Source: a virus (lineage: Duplodnaviria; Heunggongvirae; Uroviricota; Caudoviricetes). From it: a stretch of 31,172 nt of DNA. Positions 1,266-10,330 of this stretch are shown here, in pieces. A model generated the notes under the pieces. It did no database searches, was not told the DNA's origin, and saw only the letters and a program-made list of their open reading frames with translations. The position numbers and the translations under genes are program-made. Position 1 is the stretch's first letter. Each line of letters begins with the position of its first letter. The stretch lies in IMG/VR virus record IMGVR_UViG_3300027365_000008; one strand, given 5' to 3'.

Positions 1266-1306
1266 CAACAATGCCCACTCATTAGAATGGGCATGAGTAA
1301 AGTTCA
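1266..1306 (-). repeat. 41-bp intercistronic hairpin element, copy 2
   Basis: Exact copy of 474-514. It overlaps the TGA stop of the upstream gene. Confidence 0.85.
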
Positions 1307-1591: not shown

Positions 1592-1618
1592 AACGATTCT
1601 CCTTTGAATTGATAGGGA

Positions 1619-1834
1619 TTAACCACACCGCATATCAGATTCTTCGATGCCTACAACTTCGCAGTAAAACGATACTTTGTCGTTAAAATACTTAATGGCA
1701 TCTTTCTCGGAGTATCCAGAAAGAATTGTATGTTCGTTTGTTGTCCCCGCATCAACTCGACGAAAGATGAACGAAGTATTCACGTCGGACCAATACAATT
1801 GGAAATGCGTGACGCCATAGCGACGATTTTTCAT
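1619..1834 (-). CDS. Hypothetical protein, 71 aa, first gene after the long leader
   Basis: RBS CAATTCAAAGGGGTAATGAC-ATG. Confidence 0.75.
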   Translation of the reverse strand: MKNRRYGVTHFQLYWSDVNTSFIFRRVDAGTTNEHTILSGYSEKDAIKYFNDKVSFYCEVVGIEESDMRCG

Positions 1835-1849
1835 GTCATTACCCCTTTG

Positions 1850-2705
1850 AATTGCTTAGGAATGTTACGTAAAGCCGTAACGGCGAGCTAGACTTTCCAA
1901 AGAATGGAAAGCCCAGCCCGTTACCGCTTCATTTCCGTTTTGTGGCTACTGAGTCGCAAAGGGAGCGCCAATCCCACCGAATCCGTTTCAAATTCACCTA
2001 CAATCCCCGAGGGGTACCGCATTGCAGGTTACAGCGGCAGACGCAACGGCACGTCGATAATTGTCTGCCTGTAAGCGCCCATCCTTGGGCAAACTTCATC
2101 CTAATCGGGCAAAGCGTGGCCATACTTCGTGAACCGCGCCGCATTTGCCCATTATCTAATGAGTAACGCGGTTCACTGACCCGACAATTGCACCACCGGC
2201 ATACTCACTTTCTCCGAGGGAGTGAATATTATGGAAACCAATTATGGTCATGATGCAATCATCCGAGAAGGCCCATGCGTCGATCGGTTGGATGTTTTCG
2301 TTTCTGGTATAAAACATCCAAAAGTACCGGCTTGCTTATTTTAATTCGCGCCACACGAATACATAAGATAGTACTGCTACCAATCTAAGCATGTTTCTCG
2401 GGCAAACTATTCAGTACCGTGTTCGCACATAGACGAACAACTATTAGCCTGAAAATCCGGCACCCGCACGATGTTTACGTGCTGGCAGAAAGCACATTTG
2501 CCGATGCTTTCACTTGACACATTAATCCCTTGGGCGGTGGTCGCCTGCACCAAAAAGTATCAGCATACTTCGCACGGTCGCAGTAATACTGGTCATCCCG
2601 TTAAGATACACTTCCAGCGCACGCACCCTATCTGCGAGGGAGAGTGTGGCACCCGTTCTAAAGATGCGACAATCCTTTCCCGTTGGGCCTAATGCTTTGC
2701 CATCC
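1850..2705 (-). ncRNA. Candidate long structured leader or ncRNA (~850 nt)
   Basis: No minus-strand ORF of 60 aa or more. Dense hairpins at 1872-1929, 2029-2074, 2077-2090, 2129-2176, 2201-2229, 2288-2321, 2466-2482, 2489-2510 and 2555-2570. It lies directly downstream of the promoter array. Confidence 0.45.
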
Positions 2706-2709
2706 GATT

Positions 2710-2721
2710 TGTTAAAGAGCG
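2710..2721 (-). promoter_or_regulatory. boxA antitermination element (CGCTCTTTAACA)
   Basis: Differs from the rrn boxA TGCTCTTTAACA only at the first base, which is C as in lambdoid boxA. A hairpin TTGCTA-GACT-TAGCAA lies just before it. Confidence 0.75.
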
Positions 2722-2729
2722 TGTTGCTA

Positions 2730-2757
2730 AGTCTAGCAAATCAGATTGTGTTGTCAA
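2730..2757 (-). promoter_or_regulatory. sigma70 promoter, unit 1 downstream
   Basis: TTGACA-N16-TAGACT with TGc extended -10. Confidence 0.7.
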
Positions 2758-2800
2758 GCCAATCTTGCGCTTGTTTTCAAATCCGTTTTGCTTGATTCCA

Positions 2801-2828
2801 AGTCTATCAGGCTTTCGTGTTCTGTCAA
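2801..2828 (-). promoter_or_regulatory. sigma70 promoter, unit 1 upstream
   Basis: TTGACA-N16-TAGACT with TGa extended -10 and an A-rich UP-like tract CAAAATAAAAC. Confidence 0.7.
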
Positions 2829-2958
2829 GTTTTATTTTGAATCCCGTTTCATCTTTTGTTATGCAATGCGACCCGTTGGGCGATGCTTTCCAGATGAAAC
2901 CGATTCTCAACTTTCAGGCGCACTTGTCCCGTCGAATCAGAATCTTACTTAGCAGCGA

Positions 2959-2970
2959 TTTTAAAGAGCG
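2959..2970 (-). promoter_or_regulatory. boxA element (CGCTCTTTAAAA)
   Basis: 11/12 match to CGCTCTTTAACA, in register with 2710-2721. Confidence 0.65.
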
Positions 2971-2978
2971 TGTTGCCT

Positions 2979-3006
2979 AGTCTAGCAAATCAGATTGTGT
3001 TGTCAA
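2979..3006 (-). promoter_or_regulatory. sigma70 promoter, unit 2 downstream
   Basis: TTGACA-N16-TAGACT with TGc extended -10. Confidence 0.7.
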
Positions 3007-3049
3007 GCCAATCTTGCGCTTGTTTTCAAATCCGTTTTGCTTGTCCATC

Positions 3050-3077
3050 ATTCTAGCAGGCTTTCGTGTTCTGTCAA
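3050..3077 (-). promoter_or_regulatory. sigma70 promoter, unit 2 upstream
   Basis: TTGACA-N16-TAGAAT with TGc extended -10 and an UP-like A tract. Confidence 0.75.
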
Positions 3078-3206
3078 GTTTTATTTTGAATCCCGTTTCA
3101 TCTTTTGTTATGCAATGCGACCCGTTGGGCGATGCTTTCCAGATGAAACCGATTCTCAACTTTCAGGCGCACTTGTCCCGTGGTCGAGCGATGGGGCTGG
3201 CAACAA

Positions 3207-3218
3207 TTTTAAAGAGCG
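3207..3218 (-). promoter_or_regulatory. boxA element (CGCTCTTTAAAA)
   Basis: Retained even though the flanking sequence is not part of the duplication. A hairpin GCGCCA-CGGAT-TGGCGC lies just before it. Confidence 0.65.
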
Positions 3219-3285
3219 CGCGCCAATCCGTGGCGCTGGGACTTGCTTCCTGTCCCGCTTGCTTCGTCCTAAGCAAGTGATTTGA

Positions 3286-3313
3286 ATTATAGACTAGAAG
3301 CGGCAATGGTCAA
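3286..3313 (-). promoter_or_regulatory. sigma70 promoter
   Basis: TTGACC-N16-TATAAT with A/T tracts upstream. Confidence 0.7.
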
Positions 3314-3356
3314 GTATTCAAATTCAATTTTCCGAAAAAATTTTCAAAATAGACTG

Positions 3357-3369
3357 TAATGCATTGATT
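3357..3369 (-). promoter_or_regulatory. IHF consensus site
   Basis: AATCAA-TGCA-TTA matches WATCAANNNNTTR. Confidence 0.5.
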
Positions 3370-3493
3370 CTATTTTGATTTTCCGATTTCGTTAGGCTGC
3401 GAACCTAGCGCCTTCATTATATCCCATCCCGCACCCGCGAATATCATATCTGATTTGAAGAATCAAGAATTTTTCTTCAAATCCATGAAAAAC

Positions 3494-3522
3494 ATTCTAA
3501 ACGATTGATTTTAAAATGTAAA
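3494..3522 (-). promoter_or_regulatory. Possible sigma70 promoter with an IHF consensus (3498-3510) in its spacer
   Basis: TTTACA-N17-TAGAAT, and AATCAA-TCGT-TTA matches WATCAANNNNTTR. The AT-rich context raises the chance of a random match. Confidence 0.45.
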
Positions 3523-3528
3523 TAGTTT

Positions 3529-3583
3529 AAATGAAAATGATTCTCATTTGCTTAAATTATTTTTGATAATGATTCTCATTTAA
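3529..3583. promoter_or_regulatory. Two Fur-box-like sites
   Basis: GAAAATGATTCTCATTTGC (3533-3551) and GATAATGATTCTCATTTAA (3565-3583) each match GATAATGATAATCATTATC at 14/19. 3529-3549 is a near-perfect 10-1-10 palindrome. Confidence 0.55.
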
Positions 3584-3632
3584 AGGATATTTGGTTAATT
3601 TTTGATCAATTAGGATGCTAATTATTGCATTT

Positions 3633-3716
3633 GTCCGGGATTTTACCGTATATCCCGGACGTTTGACAGGACAAGATGACGGACAAGATACCGGACAAGA
3701 TGACGGACGGATGTAC
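3633..3716. repeat. 9-bp inverted repeat followed by 12-bp tandem repeats
   Basis: GTCCGGGAT...ATCCCGGAC at 3633-3660. In-register 12-mers GGACGTTTGACA, GGACAAGATGAC, GGACAAGATACC, GGACAAGATGAC and GGACGGATGTAC run from 3657. Confidence 0.8.
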
Positions 3717-3747
3717 AAACAAATCGGGCCACTTCAAGAGTGGCCCG
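3716..3747 (-). terminator. Intrinsic terminator after gp68
   Basis: CGGGCCACT-CTTGA-AGTGGCCCG followed by ATTTGTTT. Confidence 0.65.
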
Positions 3748-7480: not shown

Positions 7481-9829
7481 TTAGGCTCCTACAGTAAGTT
7501 TGTTTGACGCACGGGAACAGGCAGTGTAACGGAACTTCTGTTGATCGAGGAAGAAGGATACGTCCTCATCGATAAACAACACGTCCGTGAAACTTGAACC
7601 TTGGCAATTACTATGGGGGAAGCCGTTTTGTAAGAAGTTCCCCCCATCAGGAACGGTAACGCACATGCTACTCTCCACTGATTCTTCAATACTCTCCACC
7701 CGCACATAATGCCAATTGAGCATCTCGGAGAGAGTAGAATCCCCAGTAGAACGAGCCATTTCTCTCGAAATGTATCCTTTCTTGTACATAGAAACCTTTT
7801 GGTGTTGTTGTACAAGTCCTTCATCATACAAGCCAGATGCCATCTCACGAGTAATGGGAATACGATACCTTTTTTCTGTTTCTCGGTAGTGATTCAACCG
7901 CGAGTTCTTTAATTTTGATACAAAACCAATCCTTTCCTTAAACGTTGAACATCCATTTCCGTAAATGTAAATGTTCCAAAGGGATGATGTTTCCCGTTGG
8001 ACCTTTTGGCTGATTATGCCAGCCCGAAGAAGGGAGACTTGAACGTAATCAGCAATAGATTTGTATTCAGTAGTAAACTGAATATGATCACACACACCAT
8101 CTTTAATATTCGCACATCCATCTTCAAACAAACCACGGAAGAATGACATTTGAACTGAGTATGGTGATCGCATGATGCACTCTGGAATGCCCTTTTCGTG
8201 GGGGGTCATGCCACCTACAGCAATCAGCCACGACCTAATATGCGTAGAGTTCACTTCGGATACCCAACCGTTACCGATGCTACAAACATTAGAAGGTTTA
8301 ACCTCGCAACGATAACCGAATAGGGTATATACCAATTCAGAAAATCTTTCAACAACATCTCTATGTCTCTTGAGTAAACGAAAGCCTGTTTTAAACATAC
8401 ATCCATCGGCTACCATCAACCCAAGAAATTCCGCTACAGTTTCATCACATTCTTTAGGCAAATCCCACTTCACCGCCCTAACATCAGATTCGATGTTTTC
8501 TGGTAGACATGCGTATCGATTCGGCTGTGCCGTGACACCCAATTTCATTCGCATCCATTCTCCTTCCTTTAACTCTTTCGCTTCCTTCATAATGAAAGAA
8601 CCAGAATCGTCATCATAATACTCGACCTTGTGATCATCCGTGACTGTCACTTCATACCCACCCTCACCAATAATCCGTAGTGACCGCATAGGTGGGTTGA
8701 TGATTTTGTTATGATATCCCATCACCCCGTCACGGGTAGCAATCATACCTGTATCAGTGATTTCACGGATCGGCAGTAATCCTTCATCGGTTTCAACGAT
8801 GGTGTCTGGGTGAACGCACTTGTGCGCTGTAAGTGCATATCCGAAAGTCATGATCGGTAGATCGGGTTCTTCCCAATGGGGTTTCTCGGTCTTCCAAGTC
8901 GTGTTGTGAACCCGAACCGTCACTTTCTTACCGGGGGAATCCATTGAACTCAGATTGAATTGGCATACGTCCAGCGAGTTCATGCGCCCTTCTACCTTGA
9001 AACGCTCACCATTGTAAATCTTGGTGTTGTTTACGACTGTGTTCTGAAGACACATGACAGTTTCACCCGCTTCAGGCACGATGTCATTGAACCCTTTGGC
9101 CACCCTCACGTTTTCATTGATCTTCTTACGAGTCTTGTTCATACCGCAAATGATGGCGTCATAATCATTGTCCTTGAAGTGCTTGACAGTCATGACGCTT
9201 CGTTTTGCACGCACTACCACATCATTACGTTTCCAACGAGGAATTGAATTGTTTTCACGGAGATGCTGGCACAGTTCTAGGATACCCGACCCTTCACTCT
9301 GACGACGAATCTGTTTCAGTTCGATGGATTGGCCCGGAAGATCAGTCAGGGTGCAGAACGGTGTTTCCTCACGCGGCGAAATAGACGGCAACTGGGCTTG
9401 ATCACCCGCCAGTACGATAGGGACACCGAGTTCCGCCAAGTCATTCCAGATACCACGCGGGACCATTGATGCCTCATCAATGATCAGCCCGTGGATAAGT
9501 ACAGAAGCAACGTCGTCCTTGTTTCGTTTCTCCCATCGAACCAGATTCCCATCAGCATCGAGAACAGGTTTGTAAAGAATGCTATGTAGGGTAGATGCGT
9601 TAAGACCATCCTTCGCCATCTGTGCTGCTGCACGCCCCACATAGGATGCCGCCACGGGTTGGATATTGTGTTTGGCCAGAAACGCAGTCAATGCCCTTAC
9701 GGTATAGGTCTTCCCGCAACCCGCGTGCGAGAGAAACCGAAGAGGATTGGAAATATCCTTACGATTAACAAGATAATCCGCCGTGGTAACGAATGCCCGG
9801 TACTGTTCATCTGCAAGTGTTTCAATCAT
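7481..9829 (-). CDS. dda: Dda/RecD-like SF1B helicase containing an intein (start moved to MIETL at 9829)
   Basis: AGCGKT Walker A, IIDEASM, GDQAQLPSI, LKQIRRQ, YALTAHK/CQGS and YTACSRA. The RBS AAAGGA lies upstream of 9829. Confidence 0.9.
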   Translation of the reverse strand: MIETLADEQYRAFVTTADYLVNRKDISNPLRFLSHAGCGKTYTVRALTAFLAKHNIQPVAASYVGRAAAQMAKDGLNASTLHSILYKPVLDADGNLVRWEKRNKDDVASVLIHGLIIDEASMVPRGIWNDLAELGVPIVLAGDQAQLPSISPREETPFCTLTDLPGQSIELKQIRRQSEGSGILELCQHLRENNSIPRWKRNDVVVRAKRSVMTVKHFKDNDYDAIICGMNKTRKKINENVRVAKGFNDIVPEAGETVMCLQNTVVNNTKIYNGERFKVEGRMNSLDVCQFNLSSMDSPGKKVTVRVHNTTWKTEKPHWEEPDLPIMTFGYALTAHKCVHPDTIVETDEGLLPIREITDTGMIATRDGVMGYHNKIINPPMRSLRIIGEGGYEVTVTDDHKVEYYDDDSGSFIMKEAKELKEGEWMRMKLGVTAQPNRYACLPENIESDVRAVKWDLPKECDETVAEFLGLMVADGCMFKTGFRLLKRHRDVVERFSELVYTLFGYRCEVKPSNVCSIGNGWVSEVNSTHIRSWLIAVGGMTPHEKGIPECIMRSPYSVQMSFFRGLFEDGCANIKDGVCDHIQFTTEYKSIADYVQVSLLRAGIISQKVQRETSSLWNIYIYGNGCSTFKERIGFVSKLKNSRLNHYRETEKRYRIPITREMASGLYDEGLVQQHQKVSMYKKGYISREMARSTGDSTLSEMLNWHYVRVESIEESVESSMCVTVPDGGNFLQNGFPHSNCQGSSFTDVLFIDEDVSFFLDQQKFRYTACSRASNKLTVGA
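7607..8818 (-). mobile_element. Intein with LAGLIDADG homing endonuclease (404 aa) in the helicase
   Basis: It starts CVHPDT after AHK and ends NGFPHSN before CQG. It contains FLGLMVADG and FFRGLFEDG, and its DNA looks more AT-rich than the flanks. Confidence 0.92.
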
Positions 9830-9907
9830 GTATCGTGGTCCTTTAATGAAAAACGCCACACAGATGATAACCCGTGTGGCGCTTCGCTGCAAGGAGGATT
9901 TACGAAA

Positions 9908-10330
9908 TTACTGAGCGGTTTCGGACTTCCGAGGACGACCGGGGCCGCGACGACCACGCTTCTTCGGTTCTTCGGCGGTTTCCTCTTTCTTTTCAGCCTG
10001 TTGGGGCTTCTCTTCAGAGGTCTTTGCCGGTTCGGACTGGGGAGCCGCTTCGCCAAACATTGCTTCATCCGGCTTGGGCAGACGATGATTGCCCTTGGTC
10101 AGATCGAGTACCTGAATGATGTCATCGTAAAGTTCCAATGCATTGCGACCATTGTCCAGCTTGGTCTTCTGCATGACCTTCAGTAGATCACCATCCTGCT
10201 TCTCAAGTTGACACAGGCGGTCATAGTCGGTGCGATGCAGTGATTTCACCGGGATATAAACGATTCGCTTGTCACTCTTGGTGAGAACGAAAACACGATG
10301 GGTACGACCGTCAATACGAATGTCTTGCAT
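9908..10330 (-). CDS. Hypothetical protein with a C-terminal AT-hook-like tail
   Basis: Good RBS (AAAGGAG). It ends KKRGRRGPGRPRK. Confidence 0.75.
   Translation of the reverse strand: MQDIRIDGRTHRVFVLTKSDKRIVYIPVKSLHRTDYDRLCQLEKQDGDLLKVMQKTKLDNGRNALELYDDIIQVLDLTKGNHRLPKPDEAMFGEAAPQSEPAKTSEEKPQQAEKKEETAEEPKKRGRRGPGRPRKSETAQ

Follow-up and report, generated by a model that had tools for sequence, protein, structure and literature searches.

The early regions of phages are usually read as promoters followed by small takeover genes. At the locus analysed here, as well as independently in the phiEco32-like coliphages, the first product appears to be nearly 1 kb of folded, untranslated RNA under strong promoters, an early RNA that would be guarded by boxA, the antitermination signal of the host's ribosomal RNA (rRNA) operons. 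The locus comes from an uncultured tailed phage (IMG/VR record IMGVR_UViG_3300027365_000008), of which a stretch of 31,172 nucleotides (nt) was analysed and is referred to below as the window; the element in question occupies positions 1850-2705 and is transcribed from the minus strand. A previous sequence-only reading had proposed it as a candidate new large phage non-coding RNA (ncRNA), either a decoy or sponge against host defence or a put-like antiterminator, rather than a plain untranslated region (UTR). We conclude that it is a real, lineage-specific structured leader and an instance of an early-leader design that mimics the rRNA (rrn) operons.

The rrn leaders carry tandem promoters P1 and P2, a boxB-boxA-boxC series, a Nus/SuhB antitermination complex and a leader-trailer helix cut by RNase III. 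In these operons boxA-bound NusB/NusE, together with NusA, NusG and SuhB, makes RNA polymerase resistant to Rho on untranslated RNA; neither a boxB-type hairpin nor boxC is required for NusB/E binding. The early region of phage T7 consists of the promoters A1, A2 and A3, a leader and the RNase III site R0.3 ahead of gene 0.3, and phage lambda has a pL-nutL-RNase III-N leader. In both T7 R0.3 and the lambda N leader, an irregular rod of two helical turns precedes the first cistron, and its cleavage changes the translation of that cistron. The put element of HK022 is an ~70-nt structure of two hairpins that acts in cis on the polymerase just after the promoter and has no Nus requirement.

In phiEco32 (NC_010324), we found four sigma70 promoters, each followed by a GCTCTTTAA-type boxA, and after this array ~0.8 kb without open reading frames (ORFs; ~72,790-73,625, minus strand) that leads straight into early gene 124. 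This 0.8-kb stretch is present at 74-100% identity in 98 records (Kuravirus, Suseptimavirus), mostly unannotated, and is not in Rfam; the RNAalifold consensus of eight genomes of the phiEco32 family has many pairs changed on both sides and few broken cells. The closest cultured relatives of the phage studied here, Alishewanella phages vB_AspM_Slicko01 and Slickus01 (portal 54% identical), have three sigma70 promoters, and behind each of them come a hairpin and an rrn-type boxA GCTCTTTAACAA (8040-8800 of the Slicko01 record); two of these boxA copies are exact and one has a single mismatch, and they are unannotated in GenBank. The most abundant transcript of the Vibrio phage ICP1 is an ORF-less RNA of ~800 nt in the gp139-gp140 interval (Barth et al., 2020; PMC7567579), with a promoter at 11135-11106 and a terminator at 10244-10219 of the ICP1 stretch.

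Coding potential and folding of the stretch

The stretch 1850-2705 is non-coding. The sequence-only reading had reported no minus-strand ORF of 60 or more amino acids (aa), and the longest ones inside it (translation table 11) indeed span just 53, 48 and 48 aa. Reading TGA or TAG as sense produces only fragments of 68-81 aa; a recoded gene was rejected because alternative codes open no frame. Codon-usage log-likelihood, trained on the long genes of the window, is negative over the stretch, at the level of the promoter array, with a lone bump (+2.8, over 2310-2160) that lies over the 53-aa ORF (2317-2156), whose start codon lies inside a perfect 11-bp stem and which is not preceded by the phage's conserved ribosome-binding site (RBS) block. 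The ten longest ORFs on either strand had no Pfam or PHROG match, and with no family matches and a non-coding codon usage, a pseudogene or a set of small genes was rejected as well. The GC content of the stretch (49.5%) is above that of the adjacent early genes (45.9%) and of other non-coding segments (32-45%), which speaks against decayed genes. G exceeds C in all but one of the 78-nt windows of the leader. There is no significant self-similarity in the stretch, which disposes of degenerate copies of the promoter unit and of internal repeats.

The 856-nt RNA folds better than its shuffled controls, with a minimum free energy of -309.4 kcal/mol as against -275.3 +/- 5.0 kcal/mol in dinucleotide-shuffled sequences (z -6.83); on the plus strand, the z-score is -5.94. 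Among 13 control windows of equal length on the same strand, z-scores range from +0.14 to -3.71, and the stretch ranks first of the 14, the gap being moderate when expressed as folding excess (34 kcal/mol versus at most 28 in the controls). At the 300-nt scale, segments 1801-2100 and 2101-2400 have z-scores of -4.3 and -5.3, respectively. At least 12 helices within 1850-2705 have a mean pair probability of 0.9 or more, and the 11-bp stem, the 10-bp stem and the long rod that had been picked out by eye from the letters are all part of the thermodynamic ensemble (P 0.94-1.0).

The claim that some stems gain G-U pairs on the minus strand also held: the rod (1931-1870, -38.5 kcal/mol on minus versus -25.3 on plus), the three-way domain 2263-2183, which holds the hairpins 2249-2236 and 2229-2201, and the branched hairpin 2621-2546 favour the minus strand by 9-13 kcal/mol. 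The stem 2201-2229, already named as an exception, is slightly better on plus (-8.8 kcal/mol versus -7.5 on minus). According to these folding models, the stretch is rich in structure, and this richness is a property of the transcribed strand; the same models indicate that thermodynamics is by itself no mark of an 'ornate' RNA and that the stretch is not categorically unlike the rest of the genome.

The promoter-boxA array and the early-operon leader

The stretch lies directly downstream of a promoter-boxA array, as the sequence-only reading had stated, and its main helices are specific to the strand transcribed from that array. The five promoters and the boxA described there correspond to five sigma70-type promoters and three exact GCTCTTTAA cores (Table 1), all upstream of the stretch and confined to the minus strand, with each core no more than ~100 nt downstream of a promoter. 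Part of the array was built by a 249-bp duplication (2712-2932 and 2961-3181, 95% identical). The third boxA is the full 12-mer and agrees with the rrn boxA consensus GCUCUUUAACAA, and its 14-nt stretch is identical to the boxA of Slicko01. A word from the leader, AAACGG(G)AUU, recurs just upstream of the -35 element in P2-P5. A more distant relative, known from a metagenome, has a gp68-like protein with 45% identity, and its gp68-like gene is directly followed by an array of five or more sigma70 promoters close to the consensus; the assembled part of this array has no boxA, and the contig ends inside it. Two Logan contigs of the window's own phage likewise end inside the promoter array; such repeats therefore break assemblies.

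On the minus strand, there are no promoter-like or terminator-like sites within 1850-2705 or between it and the first early gene. It follows that transcription of the early operon includes the stretch, which is physically the 5' leader of that operon; the phrase 'rather than a plain UTR' is thus not supported. Most likely, it is a processed leader RNA of the kind seen in other phages. To the full reading, in which the early operon begins with a long, structured leader that is antiterminated through boxA, with a rod of the RNase III type at its end and a probable role in gating translation of the first gene, we give a probability of roughly 0.55. Between the leader and the first cistron stands an irregular rod of about two helical turns or more, the layout of an RNase III site, and it ends 15 nt upstream of the RBS block; by analogy, this rod (1931-1870) would be cleaved by RNase III. 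When the start of the first gene was included in the folding, a segment of the 3' domain was predicted to pair with the RBS, in a helix that encloses the ~26-bp rod (Table 1). It is plausible from this model that the last 180 nt of the leader mask the RBS of the first gene.

In the mechanism that we propose, boxA would recruit the NusB/NusE-NusA-NusG(-SuhB) complex of the host, as it does in rrn operons, and RNA polymerase could then pass through 0.9-1.5 kb of RNA free of ribosomes, and beyond it the terminator-type hairpins, without Rho-dependent termination. A ribosome-free transcript of this length needs protection from Rho, and the presence of the array and that of the long leader thus account for one another. 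Compact, G-rich folding might also deny Rho a loading site; the excess of G over C would make the leader a poor Rho substrate. The 3' domain would mask the RBS of the first gene through the anti-RBS helix that brackets the rod, until the rod is cut by the RNase III of the host, as happens at T7 R0.3 or in the lambda N leader; this cut would separate the leader from the mRNA and free the RBS. An abundant folded leader fragment would remain, either as a by-product or for some further use. A put-like antiterminator, as had been suggested, is unlikely: put is a 70-nt element of two hairpins, and antitermination is already supplied by boxA, whose canonical form would make a put-type mechanism unnecessary.

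Table 1. Predicted features of the leader, the promoter-boxA array and their surroundings. Positions are those of the window; P, pair probability; energies in kcal/mol.
Feature	Position	Strand	Remarks
gp68-like late gene	4139-3756	minus	PF26830 Phage_T4_gp68; T4-type late promoter TATAAATA at 4171-4164
Intrinsic terminator closing the gp68-like late gene	3725..3747	minus	
AT-rich spacer, upstream boundary of the early control region	3320..3724		32% GC; 12-nt iterons and Fur-box-like words
Promoter P1, TTGACC-16-TATAAT	3286..3313	minus	
boxA core 1, GCTCTTTAA	3209..3217	minus	
Promoter P2, TTGACA-16-TAGAAT	3050..3077	minus	TG extended
Promoter P3, TTGACA-16-TAGACT	2979..3006	minus	TG extended
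boxA core 2, GCTCTTTAA	2961..2969	minus	
Promoter P4	2801..2828	minus	Duplicate of P2
Promoter P5	2730..2757	minus	Duplicate of P3; last one before the leader
boxA 3, full rrn-type GCTCTTTAACAA	2709..2722	minus	~+3 to +15 of P5 transcripts
Untranslated structured leader RNA	1850..2705	minus	
5' domain	2108..2701	minus	Closed by a perfect 8-bp long-range helix, 2701-2694/2115-2108, P 0.84
Branched hairpin	2546..2621	minus	5 G-U pairs in the closing stem; -21.4 on minus, -10.4 on plus
Perfect 11-bp hairpin	2288..2321	minus	2321-2311/2298-2288; 12-nt loop; P 0.94
Three-way domain	2183..2263	minus	13-bp closing stem with 3 G-U pairs, P 0.98; -27.7 on minus, -18.5 on plus
12-bp stem with inner hairpin	2129..2176	minus	2176-2165/2140-2129 (10 Watson-Crick); P 0.96
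Anti-RBS segment, UACCCCU ... GGAUUGU	2000..2016	minus	Predicted pairing with 1855-1840, P ~0.84
Rod, ~26 bp	1870..1931	minus	UCG 3-nt bulge, one mismatch, 5-nt loop; P 0.95-1.0
First early gene, orphan	1834-1619	minus	71 aa; conserved RBS block at 1855-1835
Terminator-type hairpin within the early operon	1271..1294	minus	Second copy 502-479

Comparison with other systems and alternative explanations

The locus and the phiEco32 family are alike in having tandem sigma70 promoters with boxA (here, five promoters and three boxA cores), followed by ~0.8 kb of untranslated RNA with no terminator before the early gene, both here and in phiEco32. In each case, the early transcription unit follows directly on a terminator and has this RNA at its start, and the downstream RBS is predicted to be paired with the leader. 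In the Kuravirus RNA, it is the hexanucleotide immediately 5' to the last boxA that is predicted to pair with GGUGAA of the downstream RBS; this helix is leader-trailer-like, spans the whole RNA and is invariant in the eight genomes. The differences are that phiEco32 is a podovirus whereas the phage here is a T4-like myovirus, that the hosts differ and that the phiEco32 RNA is conserved in 98 records whereas no relatives were found for the leader here. Homology between the two RNAs was rejected, with blastn, a profile and two covariance models all negative: an nhmmer profile from eight phiEco32-family genomes (--max) had no match in the window, and covariance models of R1 and R2, two covariation-rich domains that make up ~30% of the phiEco32-family RNA, had none in 1850-2705 at E <=10 with filters off. 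The R1 model scores 26.6 bits (rough E 3e-5) in ORF127 of ICP1 (2603-2677, minus strand of the ICP1 stretch), a score that may be a calibration artefact.

Like the rrn leaders of Gammaproteobacteria, the locus has strong promoters arranged in tandem, with A/T-rich sequence upstream of them, and an exact GCUCUUUAACAA boxA that follows closely on the start site; its transcript is long, structured and free of ribosomes, and a long double-stranded stem of the RNase III type stands at the product boundary. Unlike in rrn operons, the product here is not rRNA (no Rfam match), no boxC was seen, the hairpin encloses boxA and the transcript runs on into protein-coding genes. With T7 and lambda the locus shares tandem early promoters of the host type, a leader that is not translated and whose structure may affect translation of the first cistron, and, just ahead of that cistron, an irregular rod of 20 bp or more. 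However, the leader here is two to four times longer, and antitermination would rely on the host only, with boxA but without a phage N-type protein or a boxB/nut hairpin.

The ICP1 RNA is similar in length, lies in an ORF-less gap of a lytic phage, has a sigma70-type promoter and is absent from Rfam. Unlike the leader here, which has no terminator between 2705 and the first gene, it has its own intrinsic terminator and no boxA, and the two share no motif enrichment. A single 26-nt local match between them (P = 0.017) was treated as chance-level and homology was rejected. GOLLD, ROOL, OLE and raiA are likewise large and structured, the first two of them phage-associated, but there was no covariance-model match to any of the four at E <=10 and the leader is not beside tRNA genes.

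The window appears to come from an uncultured T4-like phage because of its PHROG and Pfam matches (ligase, Dda-like helicase, SbcC-like nuclease, portal and gp68-like prohead core protein) and of the T4-type late promoter word TATAAATA, found in five copies versus 0.5 expected. Like the window, Slicko01 and Slickus01 have a gp68-like late gene, a terminator, CTTGTC-type iterons, an AT-rich block and sigma70 promoters, and their control region is syntenic with and probably homologous to that of the window. With their three promoter-hairpin-boxA units, these relatives suggest that early antitermination through boxA characterizes the whole of this T4-like group. The relatives differ in having a folded leader of just 265 nt after the last boxA, a real 71-aa gene after the second boxA and no sequence similarity to 1850-2705 past the 14-nt boxA. 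The Slicko01 and Slickus01 leaders differ from each other at three positions, too few for covariation. The first early protein and the 71-aa protein of Slicko01 were judged not to be homologous (P 0.6).

Judged by sequence and covariance-model searches, the leader belongs to no known RNA family. The Rfam 15 models had no match in the whole window at gathering thresholds, and the families that had been suggested for comparison (GOLLD, ROOL, OLE, group I intron, tmRNA and RNase P) were among those without a match, as were group II introns, 6S RNA, riboswitches and ribozymes; at E <=10, region 1700-3400 yielded just snoR29 and mir-2574, at chance level and far below the cut-offs. ARAGORN found no tRNA or tmRNA genes in the window. 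No homologue of the leader turned up in a blastn search of 1600-3700 against 50,697 phage records or in scans of IMG/VR with the 71-aa protein, the gp68-like protein and a gp68 alignment, and three DNA pattern scans of IMG/VR returned chance matches only. The 71-aa and 95-aa early proteins had only self-matches in a word index of 5.8 billion proteins. A scan of JGI metagenomes with the 179-aa early protein gave 80 loci that have its C-terminal domain alone in common, and nhmmer found nothing like the leader in those loci. Other assemblies of the same phage (ERZ27245760, SRR5818261) are 100% identical, and the contig of a 98% variant (DRR873017) ends at 3680, 975 nt before the leader.

A number of observations weigh against the reading of the stretch as a boxA-antiterminated, RNase III-processed leader. 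Visual inspection of the 60 nt that follow boxA showed no GU-rich boxC resembling UGUGUGGG. A predicted 10-bp hairpin (2746-2702) encloses the third boxA instead of preceding it as boxB would, and in transcripts from P1-P4 boxA would thus be buried in this hairpin. The 5' 300 nt (2401-2700) have no excess structure (z -0.55), and neither ensemble diversity nor the confidently paired share is better than in coding controls. The anti-RBS duplex is marginal (-19.3 versus -15.4 +/- 2.0 kcal/mol in shuffled leaders, P = 0.05), and promoter use, the RNA ends and RNase III cleavage are all features that we infer. The nearest cultured relatives lack the 850 nt; in Slicko01, 265 nt are evidently enough for antitermination and translation control, and the leader model leaves the length of 856 nt unexplained.

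That length, far beyond the 265 nt of Slicko01, is one reason to consider a stand-alone large ncRNA, released at the rod and very abundant early in infection, which would work in trans on a host RNA-binding factor or a defence system by serving as its decoy, sponge or scaffold. Such a role would be compatible with the leader model, to which it would add a trans function, and would make the RNA convergent with those of the phiEco32 family and ICP1. It would fit the top folding z-score in the window and a GC content that is high for non-coding DNA, and it has precedents in the ~800-nt ORF-less RNA of ICP1 and in the Kuravirus RNA with its many compensatory pair changes. Two unrelated phage groups have reached similar designs. 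We nevertheless consider it unlikely: the collections searched contain no homologue, hence there is no support from conservation or covariation, the RNA has no 3' terminator of its own and its well-definedness is unexceptional. The word content points both ways. GGAU, the top 4-mer on the minus strand, occurs 12 times versus 3.9 expected (family-wise P ~0.03), its complement AUCC just once, but this enrichment is not common to the analogous phage RNAs and the GGAU copies are mostly predicted to be paired. GGA as such is not enriched (17 versus 13.6 expected, P 0.15), and some three of the 17 triplets, including one that lies in an AAGGAU hexaloop (2084), are predicted to be unpaired. These triplets are not displayed in hairpin loops, unlike those of CsrB or RsmZ, and a CsrA sponge of that type was rejected; more generally, we found no positive evidence for the decoy or sponge that the sequence-only reading had suggested. 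It is similarly doubtful that the leader, once cut at the rod, accumulates as an ~0.85-1.4-kb folded RNA with an early job in trans, for which the titration of a host RNA-binding protein or nuclease by the twelve strand-specific GGAU words, or service as a defence decoy, would be possible candidates. Another word, AACGG, occurs six times versus 1.2 expected in 1850-2705 on the minus strand.

The stretch could instead be a neutral spacer, i.e. lineage-specific filler left by lost early genes or an inserted element, tolerated through boxA antitermination and with incidental hairpins. Its absence from the nearest relatives, the fast turnover of orphan genes in the early region, a 5' third with no excess structure, a well-definedness like that of coding RNA and coding controls that reach a z-score of -3.7 would all agree with this, but a GC content above that of flanking early genes and other non-coding DNA is the opposite of decay, and the stretch has no residual frame and no protein similarity, and resembles neither the promoter unit nor any other part of the window. 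Helices that depend on strand-specific G-U pairs (9-13 kcal/mol) are hard to get by chance and 850 useless bases are rarely kept in phage genomes, and we therefore take this explanation to be quite improbable. A function at the DNA level, as part of a replication origin such as the R-loop primer zone of T4 oriF/oriG, is suggested by the adjacent iterons and AT-rich block, a layout conserved in Slicko01, and by the G-rich transcript and the folding of the plus strand (z -5.9). It would be very surprising, given that the AT-rich unwinding region is upstream of the promoters and the transcripts run away from it, that no other part of the locus is as GC-rich as the leader and that its main helices need G-U pairs and hence RNA of one strand. 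Equally remote is the chance that one or more short ORFs, such as 2317-2156, are translated: phage early regions are rich in tiny genes and the codon-usage bump coincides with this ORF, yet no ORF has the strong conserved RBS block of the real early genes, its start codon is in the 11-bp stem, family matches are absent and the remainder of the stretch scores as non-coding.

If leaders of this kind serve in regulation only, lytic phages outside the lambdoids would start infection with boxA/Nus antitermination that is supplied by the host alone, a point relevant to the old question of how Rho is evaded in delayed-early transcription of the T4 type. Should the leaders act in trans, they would represent a new class of abundant viral long non-coding RNA (lncRNA). 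Together with the phiEco32 and ICP1 RNAs, the leader would then exemplify a convergent class of 'rRNA-operon-mimicking' early phage lncRNAs, which borrow rrn promoters, boxA antitermination and RNase III processing from the host to mass-produce ncRNA. An uncultured example without found relatives adds breadth, not proof, and the phiEco32 family is the tractable system.

Surroundings of the leader

All long ORFs of the window are on the minus strand. Directly after the terminator of the late gene there are three 12-nt iterons of the GGACAAGAT type (3666-3708), and iterons of the CTTGTC type occupy the syntenic spot in Slicko01 (2245-2295 of the Slicko01 stretch examined); these are a conserved protein-binding array that possibly serves as an origin or a regulator site. 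A Fur-box-like word, AATGATTCTCATT, occurs twice in the AT-rich block (3532-3549 and 3564-3581). The same core is found over the gp139 promoter of ICP1, just past the terminator of its lncRNA (~10170-10185, minus strand of the ICP1 stretch). Such words may reflect iron/Fur-linked control or may be an AT-rich coincidence.

Downstream of the first early gene comes a run of small orphan early genes with two terminator-type hairpins between them. Each hairpin is part of a 45-nt repeat (474-518 and 1266-1310), and a conserved 23-nt RBS block that includes AAAGGGGTAA precedes four early genes (436-458, 1224-1246, 1589-1611 and 1832-1854); from their arrangement, the repeat and the block appear to be a modular punctuation of the early transcript. 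Finally, the Dda-like helicase gene (7481-9892, minus strand) has weak matches to intein and LAGLIDADG domains (PF14890, PF14528).

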